A DNA stretch of 64,000 bases. Source: Fistulifera solaris (Eukaryota). Under the pieces are notes generated by a model. The model was not told the origin of the DNA, did not search any database, and saw only the letters and a list, made by a program, of their open reading frames with translations. The position numbers and the translations under genes were made by a program. Positions 39,542-64,000 of this stretch are shown here, in pieces. Location: NCBI GenBank assembly GCA_030295235.1, contig AP026139.1, positions 372,001-436,000 of the forward strand, in the 5' to 3' direction. Every line of letters begins with the position of its first letter. Within the stretch, counting starts at the first letter, position 1.

Positions 39542-40183
39542 ATGAAGTTCTCTGCTGCTTTCGTTGCTTTGATTGCCGGAGCCACGGCTTTCACTCCGGC
39601 TCAGCCTAGCTTTGCTCGCACTTCCGTCAAGGTATACAACCTTGAGAAGGGTGCCGGTAAGTCATCTCAATAAATGATGTTTTTTAAATATTTTTTACTC
39701 AAAATGCAGTTGGATTCTCACGCATTTCGACATTGCAGGAGGTATGTTCGACACACGCAACCCCGAACCCGTGAAGCACGAAGATGCTCGCAAGTCGATC
39801 AGTGAGGCTCCGTCGTTCGAAGAGTACATGAAAATGCGAAATGGCGGTGCCCCTGCTGCCCCTGCCCCTGCACCGGCTGCTTACACACCTCCCGCTGCAC
39901 CGGCATGGGCTCCTCCTGCTGCCCCCGCTTGGGCCCCCCGGCTGCTCCTGCCTGGGCTCCTCCCGCCGCCCCCGCTTGGGCACCTCCTGCTCAAGCGCCC
40001 GCCCCGTGGTCGCCACCGGCCGCCGCCCCGGCTCCTGCTGCCCATGGCGGTGCCCCAGTCAAGGGTGCCGGTGGTATGTTCGATACCCGTGATCCTGAAC
40101 CAGTCAAGCACGAGGACCCTCGCAAGTCGATCAGCGCCGCTCCTTCCTTCGAAGAGTACATGAAGATGCGTAACAACCAGTAA
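39542..40183 (+). CDS. Plastid-targeted small repeat protein (two 38-aa motifs + Pro/Ala/Trp linker); intron 39657-39738; one C missing near 39935
   Basis: MKFSAAFVALIAGATA-FTPAQPSFART bipartite presequence; spliced frame continues into GGMFDTRNPEP; strong codon bias. Confidence 0.85.
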
Positions 40184-49928: not shown

Positions 49929-52003
49929 ATGATTAGTAATCCGCAAGATGACGAGTTACCCAAGAAAATGACGAGGAGTCCTTCTCGACAATCGCAAGCC
50001 ACCAATATACCTCTCGGCATACGAGCGAATCTGCAAATTTCTTTGCATCATAATGAAAATAATGACGACAACGACGACGACGACAACGATCCGAAGAACG
50101 ATGATGATAATGATGATAATGATGATCAACAGCCACTATTGTTATCGACAAATGTACCCGTACGACCACGAAGACGTCGTAGACGAAGGAATCATCATCC
50201 ACTATTACCGATGGAAGATCCTCCGTCATCGGCTGATTGGAGTCGGCGGATACCGTGGAACTGTTTGCGTCTGATCGGGAGACTGGTGGTATGGACCATC
50301 ATTTTGAGCTTGGTACTTGCCGTCGTTTGGCATTCGTACGAATTGCACAAACACAAGTACGTACCCGTCTACTACTAGAGAGAAAGAAAGACAGAGACTA
50401 ATAATGCCTTTTTTCTTTCATGTCTTTTTCGTTCTCACACCTCTTGTTCTTCTTCTTTTGCCAGAACGGAACCCATCAAAATTGCCTGGTTCAGTGCCGG
50501 AGCCTTTGTCTTACTCACATTCCCCATTGCCATGTACGGTATCATTATGCATTTGTCGCATTACAACCAACCGCTCACACAAATGTACATTGTCCGCATC
50601 TTGTGGATGGTCCCCATTTATTCGATTGAATCCTGGTTGGCGATGCGCTTTCATGAACACGCCATCTATATTGAGACGTTACGTGACTTTTACGAATCCT
50701 ACGTGCTCTATTCGTTCCTCCAATTTTTAATTCAAGTTTTGGGAGGAGAAGAATCTCTTATATTATTGCTCAAAGACAAATCACCGACCCGGGGATTTCA
50801 TATGTGGGGTTTACAGTTCTGTTTAAAACCGTGGATTATGGGACAACCGGTCCGTAAAACGGTCGGTCGATCGGTCAAACGCGTCCATTGGATGTCTCCT
50901 TTCTATAAACGATGCAAATTTGGAGTCTTGCAATATGTTTTACTCAAATTCCTTTCGGCGATTGTGGTCTTGTTGTTGGAATGGAAAGGTCGTTACAAAG
51001 AAGGAGACTTTTCCTGGTCCAGTGGCTATCTCTATATTTGTATTGTCACGAATTTGTCTCAATGCTGGGCTCTTTATTGCATGATTTTCTTTTATTATGC
51101 CACAAAAATGAATTGGCACCGATCCGGCCCGTGGGAAAATTTTTGTCCGTGAAGGCCTTGGTCTTTTTCACGTGGTGGCAATCGGTCGTTTTGGCGATAC
51201 TGTATCAGTGGGGAATGATCCCGGAACAGTTGGTGAATTTGGAACAAAACTATACGGAAGAAGATGCGGCCAAGGGAATTCAAGATTATTTGATATGCAT
51301 CGAAATGTTTGCGGCGGCATTGGTCCACAGCTTTGTCTTTCCGCATACCGAGTATTTGTCGCACGCTGTCCGGGCCCGGAATCGCGCATTACAACGGAAT
51401 CATCAGGGGGAGGACTCTCATCCGACGGGGAAATGGAAATCGCGACGATTGGGTCGAAGCAAATTTCGTCCTCAATCGTATTCGAGAAATTGGGTCAAAG
51501 ACGATGCCAGTAAGTCGTCGAACGGCATTGAATTGGCATCCTTTGAATCCGCGGTGGATGCCCGGTCGATTGAGACATGGGAAGACTCCTCGATGTGGCA
51601 AAATATACAACCCCAACAGGAAGAACCTCGTTCACGAACCTGCAGTTTGGAGGATCCTTGGGAATTTTCGCCGCATCAGGAAATGGACGTTCCTCGGGCG
51701 GAAGCACTGTCACCCGTGCGGGACGATTCACACCAAGTGGACGATGATGATTCGGCCAGTGAAGGCGACGATGAATACACCAGTAGTGAAGGAGATGACG
51801 GTGATGAACCGGAAAAGACTGGCTTTATTCGGGCGTTGATTGATTCGGCGATTCCGCGTGATCTCGGAGACAGTACACTGGGCATTGTGAAAGGTGATTA
51901 TCATGTCGAGAAGAAGACACTACTCAGTGTCGCCGCTACATCCGATCAATACGATCTTTTTGCAATGAAGAGACTACTACCGCGCAAAGAAATCCCGCCG
52001 TGA
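49929..52003 (+). CDS. OSTalpha/TMEM184/LAZ1 family transporter, paralogue 1; intron 50357-50464; frameshift near 51105
   Basis: YIVRILWMVPIYSIESW, LRDFYESYVLYSF, GVLQYV, KFLSVKALVFFTWWQ, QDYLICIEMF. Confidence 0.9.
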
Positions 52004-52632: not shown

Positions 52633-54801
52633 ATGAGTGAAGCATTTCGTGTTAGGGAGAACTTTGACGAGAGTCGAAACAGCAATAGTAGCTTGACATC
52701 ACAAATCGACTCGACAACATCGAGTCCCATTCATCCTACAGCAATAAACTCCGACGAACGATCTGAATTATCGCAACAAGATGACAGTCAAGATGCTGAT
52801 GAAGAGACAGTACCGTTGACGTCGCAAGGTCCTTTATTAGAGAGTCAGCCCGCGACCCTCGATCCCCATCCCGTGATACGCTCGCGGAGTAAAAGTGCTA
52901 ATAACCAACGAAAGCGTCCAAAACGAAGACGAGCAAAAGATGCTGCTTCGGAATCACAAAAAGGATCCAAGTCTTGGATGCGCACGTGTTTATTGTGGTT
53001 TTGTCGAAATACTCGAGCGGTGCAGTCGACTCTTTCTTGTATGAACCTCTTGGCCCGTTTGCTGTTCTGGTCCTCTATGTTGGCGTCCGTTTTGGGAGTG
53101 TTTTGGTATTCGTATGAGCTCTACAATCATGGGTAAGTTTCACCGACAACAACACGTAGTAGTACTCAGGTTCCTACTGACTCATGTTTGGTTCAGAACG
53201 GAACCCCATTTGATTGCCTGGTTCAGTGCCGGTGCTTTTGTGTTACTCGGATTCCCGATATCAATGTACGGTATTGTGACACATCTGGCCAATTATAACC
53301 AACCGGATACGCAAATGTATGTTGTACGGATCCTGTGGATGGTTCCCATTTATTCGATTGAATCGTGGTTGGCGATGCGTTTTCACAAACAAGCCATCTA
53401 CATTGAGACGCTACGAGACTTTTACGAGTCTTATGTTCTCTATTCGTTTCTCCAATTCTTGATTCAAGTATTAGGCGGAGAAGAAGCGCTCGTATTGATG
53501 TTAAAAGATAAATCACCAACCCGAGGGTATCACATGTGGGGGTTGCAGTGGTGTGTGAAGCCTTGGATTATGGGTCAGCCGATTCGCAGGCCGTCCTTCA
53601 CACAAAGCGATCGAAACAACGGAACGAAACCTATACGTTGGGTCTCCCCCTTTTCATGCGCTGTAAATTGGGGGTTTTGCAGTATGTTTTGCTCAAGTTC
53701 CTCTGTGCTGTATCCGTCCTCATACTCGAATGGAAGGGCCTTTACCAGGATGGCGATTTCTCATGGCATTACGGCTACCTTTACATTTGCATCGTCACGA
53801 ATCTTTCTCAATGTTGGGCCCTTTATTGCTTGATTTTGTTTTATTTCGCCACCAAGAATGAGCTAGCGCCCATTCGGCCGGTCGGGAAATTTATGAGTGT
53901 CAAAGCATTGGTGTTTTTTACTTGGTGGCAATCTGTCATGATCGCTATTTTCGATCAGGCTGGGATGATACCGGAGCAGCTCGTAAATGTGGAGCAGGAT
54001 TGGACTACGGAAGATGTGGCAAAAGGATTTCAAGATTACTTGATTTGCATTGAAATGTTTATTGCTGCAGTGGTGCACTCATTTGTATTTCCGCACACTG
54101 AATACTCTCCCGACGCTGTCGTCGCCCGTCAGCAGGCCTCACAAGGCCACCACTCCGATTTGTCTCCAACGGGAAACGGTATCAGGAGATTTCGACGACG
54201 ATTGGGGCGCAACAAATTGTTTCCGGCGCAATACCATCGCATTCATCCTTACAAAGATAGTATCGGTAAGATATCGCCTGCACATTCAGGTTCTATGGTA
54301 GAAATGGCATCTCTCGGCTCTTCATCACCTCATGCGCTAGAAAGGGTGGAGGACCACATTCCTTGGCAAACGTTTCAACCGCAACAAGTCAATGGTTACA
54401 CTCAATACGTGGGGGATGAGGCTGATGCCCCGCCGATAGAAGCCGATCAGATGGACATAAATAATGGTTTGGGAAGAAAAGTACACGAGTGGTCAGCAAT
54501 TCCCGGTATTGTTGAATACAGCGATGACGAAGAAAATAATCCCTTAGATGACTCTAGCATAGATGACGAAGGAGAGAATAGCGATTCGCATGACTCACCG
54601 ATTGCCCGCCATAAACGTGGATTTGTTCGGGCGCTTCTCGAATCCGCTATTCCCACCGATCTAGGCAGTAGTACTATGGGAATCGTCAAAGGTGATTATC
54701 ACGTTGAAAAGAAGACTCTGCTTCATGTTGCAGCAGCGTCGGATCAGTACGATCTGTTCAACAAGCTGCGACGGAATACGCAAAAGACGACGAGCTCATG
54801 A
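52633..54801 (+). CDS. OSTalpha/TMEM184/LAZ1 family transporter, paralogue 2; intron 53133-53196; frameshift near 53650
   Basis: Same motifs as paralogue 1 and intron at the same codon position. Confidence 0.9.
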
Positions 54802-54904: not shown

Positions 54905-57015
54905 CTACGAAGACGAGGTATGGTGTTCTTCGTCAACGCCATGGACATATTGACCCTCACGCTGAGAAAAATTCTGATCTGTAATAAAAGGAGGGTGCGT
55001 AGGGTAGGCTGCTGTAGGTGGAAGAACCATACGTTGACTCATCATAAACTGTGCCTGCCATACGCTTTGCGCCGAGGGTCCTTTTATTTTGACAATTCTT
55101 GATCGAGTTCCTGGTACGAATTCGCCTCGTTGGCTCGCTCTGATGCGAGTTCCTGACAGGTTCTCCAGTTCCGTGAGCGTACTGCCCCCGCGGCCAAGAA
55201 TGGAACCTATCATCGAGTCTGGTACGAGTAATTGAACGCTGAAAACTCCCGGCGCCACCAACGCTGGCGGCTGAGGTACGAATGCTTCGCTATAACCTTG
55301 GGTTGGCGCAGGGCGGATGGGCGGTGACAAGCTCATCGACTGTTCAAATTGCAACGCAAGTAGCTCAGGAGCTGATGTACTGTGTGATACCGTACGGCTT
55401 ACAGACGAGGAAGCATCTAATGGGCCTTGAGGCTGCGGAAGCAAGTGAAGTTGTTGGTTTAAACTGCTTGGAGTAGTAACGGGCAGCCCCGAGCTTGGTA
55501 AGTAAGAAGCTTGTTGAGTCCTGTAGCTTCCAAGAAAATCAGAGGTCGGAAGGTGACCAAATGGAAGCCGCTGATTGAGCATGATCCCTGGCAAATCGGG
55601 GGACGAAGAAATTCGCCTAGGTACACTTGCAGTCTGAGACAAAAGATTAACTTCAGGTGCGGCGCTCCAGTTGGTCGAATCGGTCGCGAGTATTCGATTT
55701 TGATTTGAAGGAATAGGTAGAAGTACCGGCTGCAATTGTCCTCCATACGAGTCGGGGACAGCTTTCGTGTAGCTTGTCGTCATGTTGGCATACCGACAAA
55801 TATCAGGATGCGCAACCATACCGTCCAAAAATCAAATAGACACAGCTTAGACACGACTCCAAGGACTGACCAGTGATCGTAACGATGCGTTCCGAGGTGT
55901 TCAGCATCATGGACGATAAAGTGTAGCCACCAGCATTGTCGACGGCATCTTTCGCCGACAATCGAACAGACGAAACACCCGTGCTTTCCTCCATGAATTT
56001 AATGTTCGATCCGGATTTTCCGATTATCATTCCACAACTTGACGCAGGGACGAGTAATCGCACGACGAAGTCGAACACTGGTGTTGTTCCTCTTTGGCGC
56101 TGCAGTTGCCACGCTACATGTTGGGAATGCTGCTGTTCCTGTAGCATGTGAAGTCTGCCTAGAAGCAATTTAAGCGCAGTTTTACAGTTATCGGGCTCCC
56201 CTTGGACCAGACAAACACGATCTTGAGTACCTGGATAGTAATCCCCAGTCTGGCTCAGCTTAATCCTCGTTGATGATTGCTTCTGAAACTCCGAAATCGT
56301 TTGCCCCGATCGCCCAATGATTGAACCAGCGACATTGTTTGAGACCAGCAACTTGAATGCCGCTGCGCAGGTTGCTGAATTTGGTCTTGCGTATTGATCG
56401 GCTTGATGGGATGGAGACGAAGATTGAGTAGGAGCCACAATGTCTCGGTAGCTCGTTGGTTGAGAAAATGAGGTAAAGTCGGATGGCGAGCTTGCCGACC
56501 AACTGGACACTCCTTCTTCTGTAAAGTGACTAGCGTGATGTTGAGGTTGAGATGTATGAGTATGAGATGAATGAGTGTGTGGCGTGTGAGAGGCTAGCCC
56601 CTCTCTTGCAAAGTCAGGCTCTTCTTCGCTTGTACTCAAGTGAGGCAGCGATGAATTTCCTAAACTTGTTGGTGTTGTTGTGGTTCCGGTTGTAGGAACC
56701 GATGAATGTTCGGGCGAGGGCGATTTCGATGTGCTGATTGGCCCCACTTCACATTTAATGGTTGCTGTGCCCTCAGGAGCTAGTAACGCTATATTTGTAG
56801 TTGTGTGGGAAAGGGGCTGACTGTGTGAGGGAGCTGTGCTGTGAGAGCGAATGTCGTGTGCTAGGGATGATGTGAGGTGCTGATTGTGTGACGAATTTTG
56901 AGATGTAGAATTTTCCTTAAGTCAAAATAGTAACAAAGAATGTGAGAACGAGAGGCAACCAACAAAGCCTGTCTCAGAAAAGGGTTCTGCATCTACGTAC
57001 ACTCGATAAGGACAT
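54905..57015 (-). CDS. Three-KH RNA-binding protein (NOVA/PCBP-like); intron 56916-57000; frameshift near 55828
   Basis: AGSIIGRSGQ, CGMIIGKSGS, IGSILGRGGS; YYPGTQDRV and FVPGTRSRIV as in NOVA-type KH; ATGTCCTTATCGAGT|GTACGT first exon joins in frame. Confidence 0.85.
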
Positions 57016-58090: not shown

Positions 58091-59165
58091 ATGTCGACAA
58101 ATCGCATCTCGGTTTACAGTCAATACACCCGCAGCAGCTCAAGTTCCAGTACCAGCGAGAACTTGCCTCCGCGAACTCTTGCTCGTTTATCGCGAGAAGT
58201 CCGCAATTTACAGAAATCTCCCCCCTGAAGGTGTAAGACTTGTCGTAGATGAAGAGACTGGTTTGCCCACGAACCTTGGAGAGCTCATGGTACGTCGTTC
58301 TCCGACTGCAAAGAGAGGTTGCTTTCGCTGCAATTGAATTCGCTGAAATGGAAGGTGACCCCCAGTCCCAACGTGTTTTAGTCTCTTCATTAGTGTACTG
58401 TCGCACTGTTTCCGTTGAAACGCTCACGTACACAATTGGCTATACCAAAATTTTACACTTGATTGCCCAAGCCGATGTTGTTTTTTGTTACGATCAAAAA
58501 GAACTTTTGTGTACAAATCCGCCTCCAAATAACCGTATTGCCGCCGGGGGTCCTTGTGGAAAACCTCTTCTCACTCTAAACTTTTTGTCACTGATCTTTT
58601 CTAGGCTGAAATGCAAGGCCCCCAAGGGACCCCTTATGAGGGCAAATACTTTCTGCTGAAGCTTGTGTTCGGTTCGGAATTTCCTGCAGTTCCGCCGCGA
58701 GGATTTTTTCTTACCAAGATTTTTCACCCTAATGTCGATTTGTCGACGGGGGCTATTTGCGTTAACACACTCAAGAAAGATTGGACATCGGAGACAAAGC
58801 TTAGTCACGTTTTGGCTGTGATTCGTTGTTTATTGATTGTCCCGTTCCCGGAGTCAAGTTTGAACGACGAGGCAGGGAAACTATTTATGGAGTCCTATGA
58901 TGAATATGCGAAGAGAGCTCGTTTACTTGCCGATGTCCACGGACGATCCTCATCAGTGACAAAAGAAGGAGCTGATCCCGCCGACGATGTCACTTTGTCA
59001 AAAAGTATAGCAGACGAACGAGGGGTGTTGCAGTCTTCTTCCGATAGTAGCCGCAACAATAGTCAAAAACTGGCTAGCTCTCCCGTCTCTCCTTCCAAGA
59101 AACTTGTTGCAGGAGCTGTTGGTGCGAAGAAAGTTAACAAGAAGAAAAGCCTAAAGCGATTGTAG
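58091..59165 (+). CDS. UBE2S: Ubiquitin-conjugating enzyme E2 S; intron 58290-58604; extra C near 58220
   Basis: ENLPP...SPPEGV, GPQGTPYEG, KIFHPNVD..GAICVNTLKKDW, CLLIVPFPESSLNDEAGKL, C-terminal KKKSLKRL. Confidence 0.9.
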
Positions 59166-60023: not shown

Positions 60024-63000
60024 ATGTCGGCATTGCCAAAGAAAATACCGCGAAAGCTATTCAGCTATGACAACGTCGAACCTTCGCCTGCGACAGAGCC
60101 CCCGAGACCGACGTCCGAAGCCGCTCAGAATTATATTCCCAACTCGTATCGAAATTCCAAGTTGTCGCATGCCAGCATCCAAGCCATTCGTGACAAAAGC
60201 ACGCTCTCGCCTGATTTGCGAAGCCAGATCGACTATCAGCAGAGTGAAGGATTGTATCCGGCTTCGTTTCCGCACTATGTGAGAGGACGGGACAGTTTGC
60301 GCAAACACATCACCCAGCTCTTCACCAGCCGAATCGCCATTTATGACGGTGCGATGGGAACGATGATCCAAAATTATGCCAAGAAGAACAAACTGGAAGA
60401 GGACGAGTACCGCGGAGAACGTTTCAAGGACTGGAAGTGCAACGTGAAAGGTAACAATGATATGCTGAGCATCACTCAGCCGCACATCATTCAGGGAATC
60501 TACCGCCAGTACCTCGAAGAGGGAGGATCAGACTTGATCGGCACCAATACGTTCTCGTCAACGACCATCGCCATGGCCGACTACGAGATGGAGGCGTACG
60601 CATATGAATTGAACTACTGGGGTGCCCGTTTGGCCCGCGAGGTTTGTGACGAAGTGACCGCCAGAGACCCCGCCAAGCCGCGTTTCGTGGTTGGTGCGAT
60701 TGGCCCTACGAACCGCACTGGTTCGATTTCTCCGTCTGTTGAAGACCCGTCCGCCCGGAACGTGACATTTGACGAGTTGGTGGAGACGTATTTCGAGCAG
60801 GTGGTCGGGTTGATGGACGGCGGTGCCGACATTTTGATGGTAGAGACCATCTTCGACACGCTGAATGCCAAGGCTGCGTTATATGCGATTGGGGAGTACT
60901 TGGAGTTCAGCGGCTTGGATATTCCTGTCTTTGTGTCTGGTACTCTCGTTGATCAGTCGGGCCGCACGCTTTCGGGTCAAACCGGCGAGGCGTTCTACGC
61001 CTCGATCCGCCACGCCAAGCCGATGTGCGTGGGATTGAACTGCGCCCTTGGTGCCCAACACATGACCCCGTTTGTGGAACGATTGGCCGGTTGCGTCGAG
61101 TGCTTTATGCACGTTTGTAAGTATATAGAAATGGGAATAGTGCAGGCCTAAACGATTTTCGCTTGTCTGACTCGTTTGGACTTCTTCTCATTCAGACTCT
61201 AACGCCGGTCTTCCGAATGCAATGGGTGGATATGACGACTCTCCCGAAACAATGGCGGAACAGAATCGGTTGTTCTTTGAGAATGGTTGGTTAAATATGG
61301 TCGGCGGTTGTTGTGGGTCTACCCCGCCTCACATCAGGGCTATTCGTGAGGTCTCGGAGGGCTACGAACCGCGAAAGCTTCCGGATGTCGGTCGTCCCAA
61401 GATGTGGCTGTCGGGCCTGGAGGACATGAAGGTAGAGGACGTGCACAACCACCTCGGTCTTCCGTTCTTGAATGTTGGCGAGCGCTGCAACATCGCGGGC
61501 TCGATCAAGTTCAAGAAGTTGATGATGGCGGGGGACTACGGTGCTGCGATGGACATTGCCAAGCAGCAGGTCGAGGACGGTGCGCACGTAATTGACATTA
61601 ACGTTGACGACGGCATGCTGGATGGTCTGGCAGCTATGCAAAAGTTTGTCAAGATTGCAGTGACGGAGCCTGAGGTAGCGAAAGTCCCGTTCATGTTGGA
61701 TGCCTCGAAGTTCGAGATTGTGTTGGCCGGCTTGAAGTGGTGCCAGGGCAAGCCCATCGTGAACTCTATTTCGCTGAAAGTCGGCGAAGAGATGTTTATT
61801 GAGCACGCGACGCTGCTGAAGAAACATGGTGCGGCTGTTGTTGTGATGGCGTTCGACGAGGAAGGTCAGGCTGCGACAGAATCGGAGAAGGTCCGCATTT
61901 GCAAGCGTTCTTACGATATCTTGGTGAACAAGGTCAAGTTCCCACCTGAGGACATTATTTTCGATCCGAATGTGTTAACGATTGGTACTGGCATGGAAGA
62001 GCACGCGAACTACGGCGTTGATTTCATTAATGCCTGCAAAACAATTAAGGAAGAGTGTCCGTACGTGAAGATCAGCGGTGGTATCTCGAATCTTTCGTTC
62101 GGCTTCCGTGGTGTGACGAAGATTCGGGAGTCGATTCACGCCGTGTTTCTGCACCACGCCATTTTGGAATCCGGCATGGATGTCGGTATCGTCAACGCAA
62201 AAGAGATGCTTGCGATTGACGCGCTGGAACCTGACATGCTTGAATTATGCGAGAATCTAGTTTTCAATAAGACTGAGGACGCTACGGACGAAATGTTGGA
62301 ACGTACCGCCTACGAACGAGCCGTTATTGATGCCCAAAAGAAAGGACTACCTCCTCCCCGAAAGCCTCGAGGCAAGGTTGTGAACAAACCTAGAATGATG
62401 TTCAGCTATGACAACGTCGAACCTTCGCCTGCGACAGAGCCCCCGAGACCGACGTCCGAAGCCGCTCAGAATTATATTCCCAACTCGTATCGAAATTCCA
62501 AGTTGTCGCATGCCAGCATCCAAGCCATTCGTGACAAAAGCACGCTCTCGCCTGATTTGCGAAGCCAGATCGACTATCAGCAGAGTGAAGGATTGTATCC
62601 GGCTTCGTTTCCGCACTATGTGAGAGGACGGGACAGTTTGCGCAAACACATCACCCAGCTCTTCACCAGCCGAATCGCCATTTATGACGGTGCGATGGGA
62701 ACGATGATCCAAAATTATGCCAAGAAGAACAAACTGGAAGAGGACGAGTACCGCGGAGAACGTTTCAAGGACTGGAAGTGCAACGTGAAAGGTAACAATG
62801 ATATGCTGAGCATCACTCAGCCGCACATCATTCAGGGAATCTACCGCCAGTACCTCGAAGAGGGAGGATCAGACTTGATCGGCACCAATACGTTCTCGTC
62901 AACGACCATCGCCATGGCCGACTACGAGATGGAGGCGTACGCATATGAATTGAACTACTGGGGTGCCCGTTTGGCCCGCGAGGTTTGTGACGAAGTGACC

Positions 63001-64000
63001 GCCAGAGACCCCGCCAAGCCGCGTTTCGTGGTTGGTGCGATTGGCCCTACGAACCGCACTGGTTCGATTTCTCCGTCTGTTGAAGACCCGTCCGCCCGGA
63101 ACGTGACATTTGACGAGTTGGTGGAGACGTATTTCGAGCAGGTGGTCGGGTTGATGGACGGCGGTGCCGACATTTTGATGGTAGAGACCATCTTCGACAC
63201 GCTGAATGCCAAGGCTGCGTTATATGCGATTGGGGAGTACTTGGAGTTCAGCGGCTTGGATATTCCTGTCTTTGTGTCTGGTACTCTCGTTGATCAGTCG
63301 GGCCGCACGCTTTCGGGTCAAACCGGCGAGGCGTTCTACGCCTCGATCCGCCACGCCAAGCCGATGTGCGTGGGATTGAACTGCGCCCTTGGTGCCCAAC
63401 ACATGACCCCGTTTGTGGAACGATTGGCCGGTTGCGTCGAGTGCTTTATGCACGTTTGTAAGTATATAGAAATGGGAATAGTGCAGGCCTAAACGATTTT
63501 CGCTTGTCTGACTCGTTTGGACTTCTTCTCATTCAGACTCTAACGCCGGTCTTCCGAATGCAATGGGTGGATATGACGACTCTCCCGAAACAATGGCGGA
63601 ACAGAATCGGTTGTTCTTTGAGAATGGTTGGTTAAATATGGTCGGCGGTTGTTGTGGGTCTACCCCGCCTCACATCAGGGCTATTCGTGAGGTCTCGGAG
63701 GGCTACGAACCGCGAAAGCTTCCGGATGTCGGTCGTCCCAAGATGTGGCTGTCGGGCCTGGAGGACATGAAGGTAGAGGACGTGCACAACCACCTCGGTC
63801 TTCCGTTCTTGAATGTTGGCGAGCGCTGCAACATCGCGGGCTCGATCAAGTTCAAGAAGTTGATGATGGCGGGGGACTACGGTGCTGCGATGGACATTGC
63901 CAAGCAGCAGGTCGAGGACGGTGCGCACGTAATTGACATTAACGTTGACGACGGCATGCTGGATGGTCTGACAGCTATGCAAAAGTTTGTCAAGATTGCA
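60024..64000 (+). CDS. METH: Cobalamin-dependent methionine synthase (partial, runs off the window end) with internally duplicated Hcy- and pterin-binding modules; introns 61117-61195 and 63458-63536
   Basis: DGAMGTMIQ, TNTFS, GAIGPTNRT, ETIFDTLNAKAA, GLNCALG, YSNAGLPN (across the intron), GGCCG, NVGERCNIAGS, DINVDDGM, VNSISLK, DPNVLTI, SGGISNLSFGFRG. Confidence 0.95.
60060..64000 (+). repeat. Tandem direct repeat, period 2341 bp (copy 1 60060-62400; copy 2 62401 to beyond the window end)
   Basis: Visual comparison finds one difference (G61630 vs A63971); the ORF track shows the same off-frame ORFs offset by 2341. Confidence 0.95.

Follow-up and report, generated by a model that had tools for sequence, protein, structure and literature searches.

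Evidence for an old doubling of the substrate-binding module, kept near-identical by gene conversion, in the cobalamin-dependent methionine synthase of Fistulifera solaris

Canonical cobalamin (B12)-dependent methionine synthase has one homocysteine (Hcy) domain and one methyl-folate (Fol) domain for its one cap, one cobalamin (Cob) and one activation (Act) domain. At the end of a 64,000-nucleotide stretch of Fistulifera solaris DNA, hereafter the window (G000:C29:372001-436000), the METH gene instead carries two Hcy and two Fol domains, raising the question of how old this doubling is, why its copies are so alike and what the additional module contributes. Sequence comparison indicates that the doubling is almost certainly old and is common to diatoms and other stramenopiles. 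Within each gene, recurrent gene conversion almost certainly holds the copies near-identical, up to position-specific tails that it does not reach. The best explanation of the whole, which is somewhat favoured, combines this old converted doubling with a second folate site serving one B12.

The doubling consists of a 2341-bp unit that starts at 60060 and is repeated head-to-tail. Without its 79-nt intron the unit comprises 2262 nt, or 754 stop-free codons, and the reading frame is continuous over the junction 62400/62401 (as ...KPRMMFSYD...), confirming the in-frame tandem repeat of the original prediction. The single substitution claimed there over the comparable 1.6 kb was also recovered as the sole mismatch of the in-window comparison (61630 G / 63971 A, non-synonymous), the A form being present in one public contig. 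Pfam places an S-methyl_trans and a Pterin_bind domain in each of the two units, and one cap, one B12 and one activation domain downstream of the window (G000:C29:~436740-438600), in agreement with the predicted arrangement of two substrate modules on a single B12 domain. The locus contains exactly two units; a larger number was considered and rejected on the locus sequence.

By all sequence features tested, the gene is a cobalamin-dependent methionine synthase, as had been proposed. The Hcy S-methyltransferase domain (PF02574, Pfam E values 1e-62 and 4e-77) retains its GLNCA and GGCCG cysteines in both units. Three cysteines of the Hcy barrel form a (Cys)3Zn site, a role also described in the accessible text of PMC539065. 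The pterin/methyl-folate barrel (PF00809) is matched with an E value of 1e-50 in both units, and by fold to 9ssp and 4ccz, while the cap (PF02607) and B12 (PF02310) domains are matched at 1e-26 and 3e-18. The open reading frame (ORF) L005 contains GDVHDIG, an instance of the cobalamin-domain motif DxHxxG. The activation domain (PF02965, E value 2e-105) has only two matches in G000, one here and one at a second METH locus on contig C27. The predicted product is one chain of ~2,110 aa, ordered [arm-Hcy-Fol]-linker-[arm-Hcy-Fol]-cap-Cob-Act.

All features lie on the + strand. The start codon and a short unique N-terminus (MSALPKKIPRKL, 60024..60059), with an identical start at the C27 locus, are followed by unit 1 (60060..62400, 2341 bp). 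This unit comprises an N-terminal arm of ~90 aa (60060..60338), which lacks a Pfam match and is unaligned to the human or Thermus MetH chains; the homocysteine/zinc barrel 1 (60339..61353), with intron 1 inside (79 nt, GT..AG, 61117..61195); methyl-folate barrel 1 (61477..62196), assigned by Pfam and by a model compared with human MTR; and a position-specific tail helix with a Pro/Lys/Arg-rich linker to unit 2 (…KKGLPPPRKPRGK…, 62211..62400), conserved across stramenopiles. Unit 2 (62401..64000, running past the window) repeats the arm (62401-62679), the Hcy barrel (62680-63694), an intron identical to intron 1 (79 nt, GT..AG, 63458..63536) and the folate barrel (from 63818).

The age of the doubling is revealed by the C27 locus, which is syntenic, ~90% identical over the neighbourhood and doubled at matching boundaries, and which represents a homoeologue or a deeply diverged haplotype. 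Both units of both loci were aligned four ways and divided into a core (the first 2151 columns) and a tail (the last 199). In the core, the units within a locus differ at 1 (C29) or 33 (C27) columns and those of different loci at 143-145, with 125 sites following locus and 0 following position; in the tail, 67 sites follow position and 1 follows locus. The homogenised core of unit 1 (60060..62210) ends abruptly, the remainder (62211-62400) differing from unit 2 at 102 of 199 columns. Synonymous divergence (dS) of the core is 0 and 0.064 between units compared with 0.29 between loci, with a nonsynonymous divergence (dN) of about 0.006, and the introns differ at 0-1 columns within loci and 24 between them. 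By contrast, dS between unit tails (a 120-nt part) is saturated, and dN is 0.37-0.43 between units versus 0.03-0.07 between loci. Because the position-specific tails are saturated and both loci share the doubling, the duplication must be far older than the locus split. As in concerted evolution, the repeats of one gene resemble each other more than they resemble those of orthologues, and the similarity breaks off sharply where the diverged flanks begin. Of the two causes originally offered for the near-identity, ongoing gene conversion therefore stands, and a very recent duplication, which is incompatible with saturated tails and with sharing by the C27 locus, diatoms and other stramenopiles, does not.

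The junction 62400/62401 was also checked against public sequence data, and is bridged by contigs of all four runs examined (X1-X4). Those of X1 and X4 cover 62248-62522 and that of X2 covers 62248-62430, all with zero differences, while that of X3 covers 62181-62942 with 19 differences; the 79-nt intron is skipped in X1, X3 and X4. These contigs come from one study, are guessed to be of RNA origin and may in part have served to build the assembly, and no piece covers the whole stretch; hence they support the junction and the splicing rather than a full-length transcript.

A homologue search aimed at the junction gave 120 matches out of 302 candidates (proteins of 1,319-3,765 aa), of which 70 have two complete units, 2 have three and 48 have one; as the query was chosen for the junction, these counts do not give prevalence. 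Identity between units of the same protein has a median of 100% (at least 99% in 54 of 72 proteins, minimum 83%), compared with a median of 82.7% between proteins (150 random pairs). Inspection of METH architecture in other diatoms, as originally suggested, yielded multi-unit proteins in named species: two units in Nitzschia inconspicua (2113 aa), Epithemia clementina (2119 aa), Skeletonema menzelii (2111 aa), Amphora coffeiformis (2117 aa, a continuous record in EukProt) and Mucochytrium quahogii (2102 aa), and three in Skeletonema marinoi (2858 aa), Chaetoceros tenuissimus (2869 aa), Stephanodiscus triporus (2893 aa) and Chrysophaeum taylorii (2877 aa). The group names diatom, pelagophyte and chrysophyte are our presumed assignments of these genera. 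The idea of an expandable ‘accordion’ array is partly supported by the three-unit proteins of four species, although a change of copy number within a living population is not shown by them; one cluster contains forms of 2,869 aa and 2,115/2,130 aa, which either biology or assembly expansion and collapse could explain.

A quick tree built from the 72 unit cores of 44 chosen proteins contains 26 multi-unit proteins; in 20 of these the cores sit together by protein, in 3 they group by position and in 3 the placement is unresolved. For the tails, taken from 22 proteins, the grouping is by position (3 changes versus 15.8 for shuffled labels, 0 of 500 being as low), with exceptions confined to one clade, in which conversion seems to reach into the tail. 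This grouping fits one ancient duplication, with 59 columns being too few to prove a single origin. The junction linker is also present in one-unit entries from Euglena longa, Epipyxis, Corethron and Proboscia, and in an entry clustered with Aureoumbra. Outside the stramenopiles, a euglenid entry (P0088, Euglena longa, with P0091) has both the arm and the junction linker, and in Karenia entries a single unit is accompanied by the arm. Such sequences could reflect a transfer of this type of METH between eukaryotes.

Many one-unit forms have traces of a second unit. BLAST finds the junction linker in 19 of the 48 one-unit matches, and another 4, judged by eye, start in the first folate barrel or the linker; these are thus derived from doubled genes. 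Two 1,359-aa entries (P0331 and P0338) equal the 2,110-aa P0328 less exactly 751 residues, with 1-2 mismatches (1 for P0331, 99.9% identity). A form of ~1,360 aa would be the exact product of assembly collapse or of a true loop-out, which would leave the same sequence. Two or three folate barrels are present in 14 of 19 proteins picked for lying on contigs of at least 100 kb, a set with some same-species pairs; of the others, 1 begins at the junction, 2 are fragments and 2 are single (Ectocarpus fasciculatus and the T. pseudonana model). The published T. pseudonana METH model (protein 693) has 1,359 aa, according to Table 1 in the accessible part of PMC4523565. The doubled arrangement is apparently often lost from assembled sequences, although the Karenia entries may be truly single. 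A broader proposal can be made tentatively, at somewhat less than even chances: that in most diatoms and several other protist lineages METH has one cobalamin served by two or three modules, raising turnover per B12 or shielding cob(I)alamin from oxygen, and that the ~1,360-aa diatom models are largely collapsed assemblies.

What the additional module contributes is suggested by proteins in which the units have diverged. The full set of three zinc cysteines is present in 116 of 122 units, with six exceptions, which is explicable by conversion alone. The distal Hcy barrel lacks zinc cysteines in P0012/P0147 and in a clade of P0045, P0046, P0047 and P0055, where the DGAMGT motif is also lost. 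These distal Hcy barrels have 20-33 changed and 2-47 deleted of 216 conserved positions, compared with 3-9 changed of 201 in the matching distal folate barrels, as in an ordinary unit (Fisher p 6e-8 to 2e-18). When the tree is built from folate barrels only, barrel 1 of P0046, P0047 and P0055 falls with others of its position (support 0.84, modest), and so was not simply overwritten by conversion. In P0055, 2 of 25 folate-barrel differences strike conserved columns, versus 32 of 70 Hcy differences (p 0.0006). The reverse case is seen in P0021 and P0145 (two long contigs), in which the proximal Hcy barrel reads GGCSG, with loss of a zinc cysteine, and the distal barrel is intact, providing a naturally occurring probe of B12 access to unit 1. 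No decayed folate barrel was seen among the diverged-unit proteins, save for one substitution in P0012 considered below. One homocysteine site thus appears to suffice, and either may be live, while both folate sites appear to be kept.

In the larger of two structure models, of a homologue's Fol1-linker-arm-Hcy2-Fol2-cap fragment (1,166 aa; predicted local distance difference test score, pLDDT, 83.7; predicted template modelling score, pTM, 0.70), unit 2 is predicted to be a canonical module (root-mean-square deviation, rmsd, 1.9 A over 633 residues, Z 46.9 versus the N-terminal half of human MTR). The folate-barrel model matches human MTR 9ssp with Z 35.8 (rmsd 2.5 A over 362 residues). Both the larger model and a first one, of a circularly permuted fragment, show the ~90-aa arm as ordered (pLDDT 76-96 per block for the unit-2 copy in the first), and the glycine-rich linker to the cap is of low confidence in the larger model. 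As to the origin of the arm, neither a Pfam match nor a usable Atlas match was obtained, which decides neither novelty nor absence; a search of a representative set gave 63 matches, all but two of them below 400 aa. The sole prokaryote match (L012) was rejected as a 15-residue chance match within an unrelated ORF.

In the proposed mechanism, the one tethered B12 domain would visit both Hcy-Fol units, and a second loaded folate barrel within reach would re-methylate cob(I)alamin sooner, shortening its lifetime. The outcome would be more turnovers per B12, fewer oxidative inactivations and a lower reactivation cost in an oxygen-rich cell; one homocysteine site would be enough, with the second staying intact mostly through conversion. 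According to the accessible texts of PMC10293825 and PMC13483994, about one in 2,000 turnovers of MetH ends in oxidative inactivation, and the B12 domain leaves its resting state when methyl-folate binds; in the accessible text of 10.1101/2024.08.29.610163, turnover is reconstituted in trans between complementary mutants. Retention of the doubling, though a loop-out between the repeats would yield a canonical one-unit gene, also argues for this mechanism. There is about an even chance that the single B12 domain can visit both units and that selection retains the second methyl-folate site.

In algae, most B12 is drawn by METH, and shortage of the vitamin can limit the growth of diatoms. The accessible part of PMC11197592 states that B12 may reach limiting levels. 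B12 economy, the reason originally suggested for the doubling, is plausible, with comparative sequence data pointing to the second folate site and not to both extra substrate sites.

Several observations weigh against this explanation. The B12 domain is led to the module it belongs to by the Fol:Cap linker (10.1101/2024.08.29.610163, accessible text), and unit 1 has no Fol:Cap linker of its own. The genome contains two METE-family matches (PF01717; C34:145567-146603 and C35:161565-162594), so that B12 economy is not forced on this organism, nor is the doubling confined to B12 auxotrophs. The test of selection versus conversion is significant in 1 of 5 proteins (p 0.0006, 0.07, 0.19, 0.20 and 1.0), and the folate barrels of P0045 differ at just 3 sites, indicating that they are still being converted. 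The pattern of Hcy decay comes from two independent lineages and one reverse case, in which P0021 and P0145 may be from one organism, possibly with another METH; in P0012, folate barrel 1 has an S>W change in its SGGISN motif, absent from the cluster mate P0147. The 25 remaining one-unit matches are clean proteins of ~1,360 aa, some of which may be real. Folate barrel 1 is not placed relative to the B12 domain by the models, the pTM of 0.70 being uninformative there. Finally, both loci have one-base frame breaks 3' of the window, in the same C run and in one other run each (C29, L005 ~6575 and ~7585; C27, L007-L008 region B 16059 and 16661). Reading frames of homologues run unbroken to the C-terminus, and the homopolymer breaks are likely assembly errors.

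These points leave room for a unit 1 that is non-catalytic, acting as a folate sensor, a reservoir, an alternative cap dock or a loading/reactivation platform, with the chemistry confined to unit 2. The missing Fol:Cap linker and the retention of folate motifs during decay of the first Hcy barrel would fit such a role, as would the mutually exclusive binding of the cap and methyl-folate to one folate-domain element (PMC10293825, accessible text). However, the loss of a proximal zinc cysteine in P0021/P0145 with an intact distal barrel suggests that B12 works at unit 1, and three-unit forms add yet more modules; this role is judged unlikely, though it is the most credible of the alternatives. 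Less credible is a neutral or entrenched duplication, in which unit 1 brings no benefit and stays intact only via conversion repair. Conversion does account for near-identity with no selection on unit 1, some proteins are cleanly single-unit (Karenia, Ectocarpus fasciculatus and the T. pseudonana model), and the first Hcy barrel decays once conversion stops. Against neutrality, the unconverted unit-1 tail is conserved (dN 0.067 versus dS 0.23 between loci; median 60% identity between species), the diverged folate barrels of P0055 avoid changes in conserved columns, and 750 extra residues seem to have been kept in distant lineages despite a one-step loop-out route, making such a duplication improbable.

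Equally improbable is the formation of two products, by cleavage in the basic Pro-rich linker or by a second start at the Met-Met before FSYD, giving a one-unit METH and a free Hcy-Fol module that would act in trans. The linker is basic, with pLDDT <50 at 385-396 in the first model, the junction Met is present in both loci, and turnover in trans is possible for MetH (10.1101/2024.08.29.610163, accessible text). Yet the junction Met is not conserved among homologues, and the larger model predicts an ordered linker (block pLDDT 74-89). An assembly artefact or a very recent, strain-private duplication, to which the 1 difference per 2,151 columns at the C29 locus might point, can be given almost no weight. 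The artefact is ruled out by the C27 locus with its own converted pair, by the unique 190-nt junction bridged in the four runs of one study and by the junction common to more than 70 homologues; the recent duplication is rejected on the second locus, the homologue junctions and the saturated tails. An old converted doubling with a second folate site for one B12 remains the preferred reading.

Comparison with known systems places the gene close to canonical MetH (E. coli and Thermus MetH and human MTR; PDB 9ssp, 4ccz, 8ssc and 8g3h), which has the same domains and order within the unit, the zinc cysteines, the folate motifs and the GDVHDIG cobalamin motif. It differs in having two or three Hcy-Fol modules per single cap, Cob and Act domain, a ~90-aa ordered arm per module that is unaligned to the solved chains, and a dedicated inter-module linker with concerted evolution within the gene. 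The single-unit algal METH models (T. pseudonana protein 693 and Karenia isoforms) share the arm, Hcy, Fol, cap, Cob and Act domains and lack one unit of 751-754 aa. Concerted evolution of tandem repeats and gene accordions are known classes. Here too the repeats are closer within than between species, with a copy number of 1-3 among database entries, but what is repeated is a catalytic module of 750 aa, set between position-specific linkers within a single gene for a housekeeping enzyme. Among methionine synthases with an internal duplication and a degenerate barrel, MetE comes nearest as a precedent, being a double barrel shaped by internal duplication in which one barrel lacks binding sites (PMC539065, accessible text), as the distal Hcy barrel has lost its sites in two lineages here. 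By contrast with the present case, in which whole two-barrel modules are doubled and near-identical, MetE is B12-independent and non-homologous, with long-diverged halves forming one active site. No description of a doubled METH was found in the literature covered, including the accessible parts of PMC4523565, 10.1101/2023.06.07.544158, PMC12803021, PMC11197592 and PMC6451014, subscription papers and supplements lying outside its scope. This METH departs from the canonical one-module architecture of MetH, and a prior mention of the doubling is possible.

Elsewhere in the window, the gene directly upstream of METH (58092-59165, + strand), presumably ubiquitin-conjugating (E2)-like by motif, is syntenic on C27. 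A gene on the - strand (54905-56921), which we take to encode a KH-domain-like RNA-binding protein, is split into two ORFs at both loci. An older tandem gene pair, also present on C27 (50462-50761 / 53194-53493 and 51820-51960 / 54618-54758; 72-81% identity, spacing ~2.7-2.8 kb), has ORFs that presumably resemble membrane proteins of the organic-solute-transporter type. Short GC-rich direct repeats at 39734-40173 encode a Pro/Ala-rich sequence.

The gene offers a clear case of gene conversion acting within one housekeeping gene over very long times. Multi-module METH, if true, would be a new way of running a tethered-cofactor enzyme, and would allow a direct test of the travel distance of the cobalamin domain and of folate re-methylation as the limit on turnover, for which naturally occurring variants, with either the distal or the proximal homocysteine barrel dead, are already at hand as probes. 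The gene also warns that near-identical internal repeats drop out of assemblies, and each molecule contributes twice to the reads or peptides counted from its doubled part. If the ~1,360-aa diatom models are largely collapsed, counts of METH reads and peptides, as well as estimates of B12 demand, would need revisiting.

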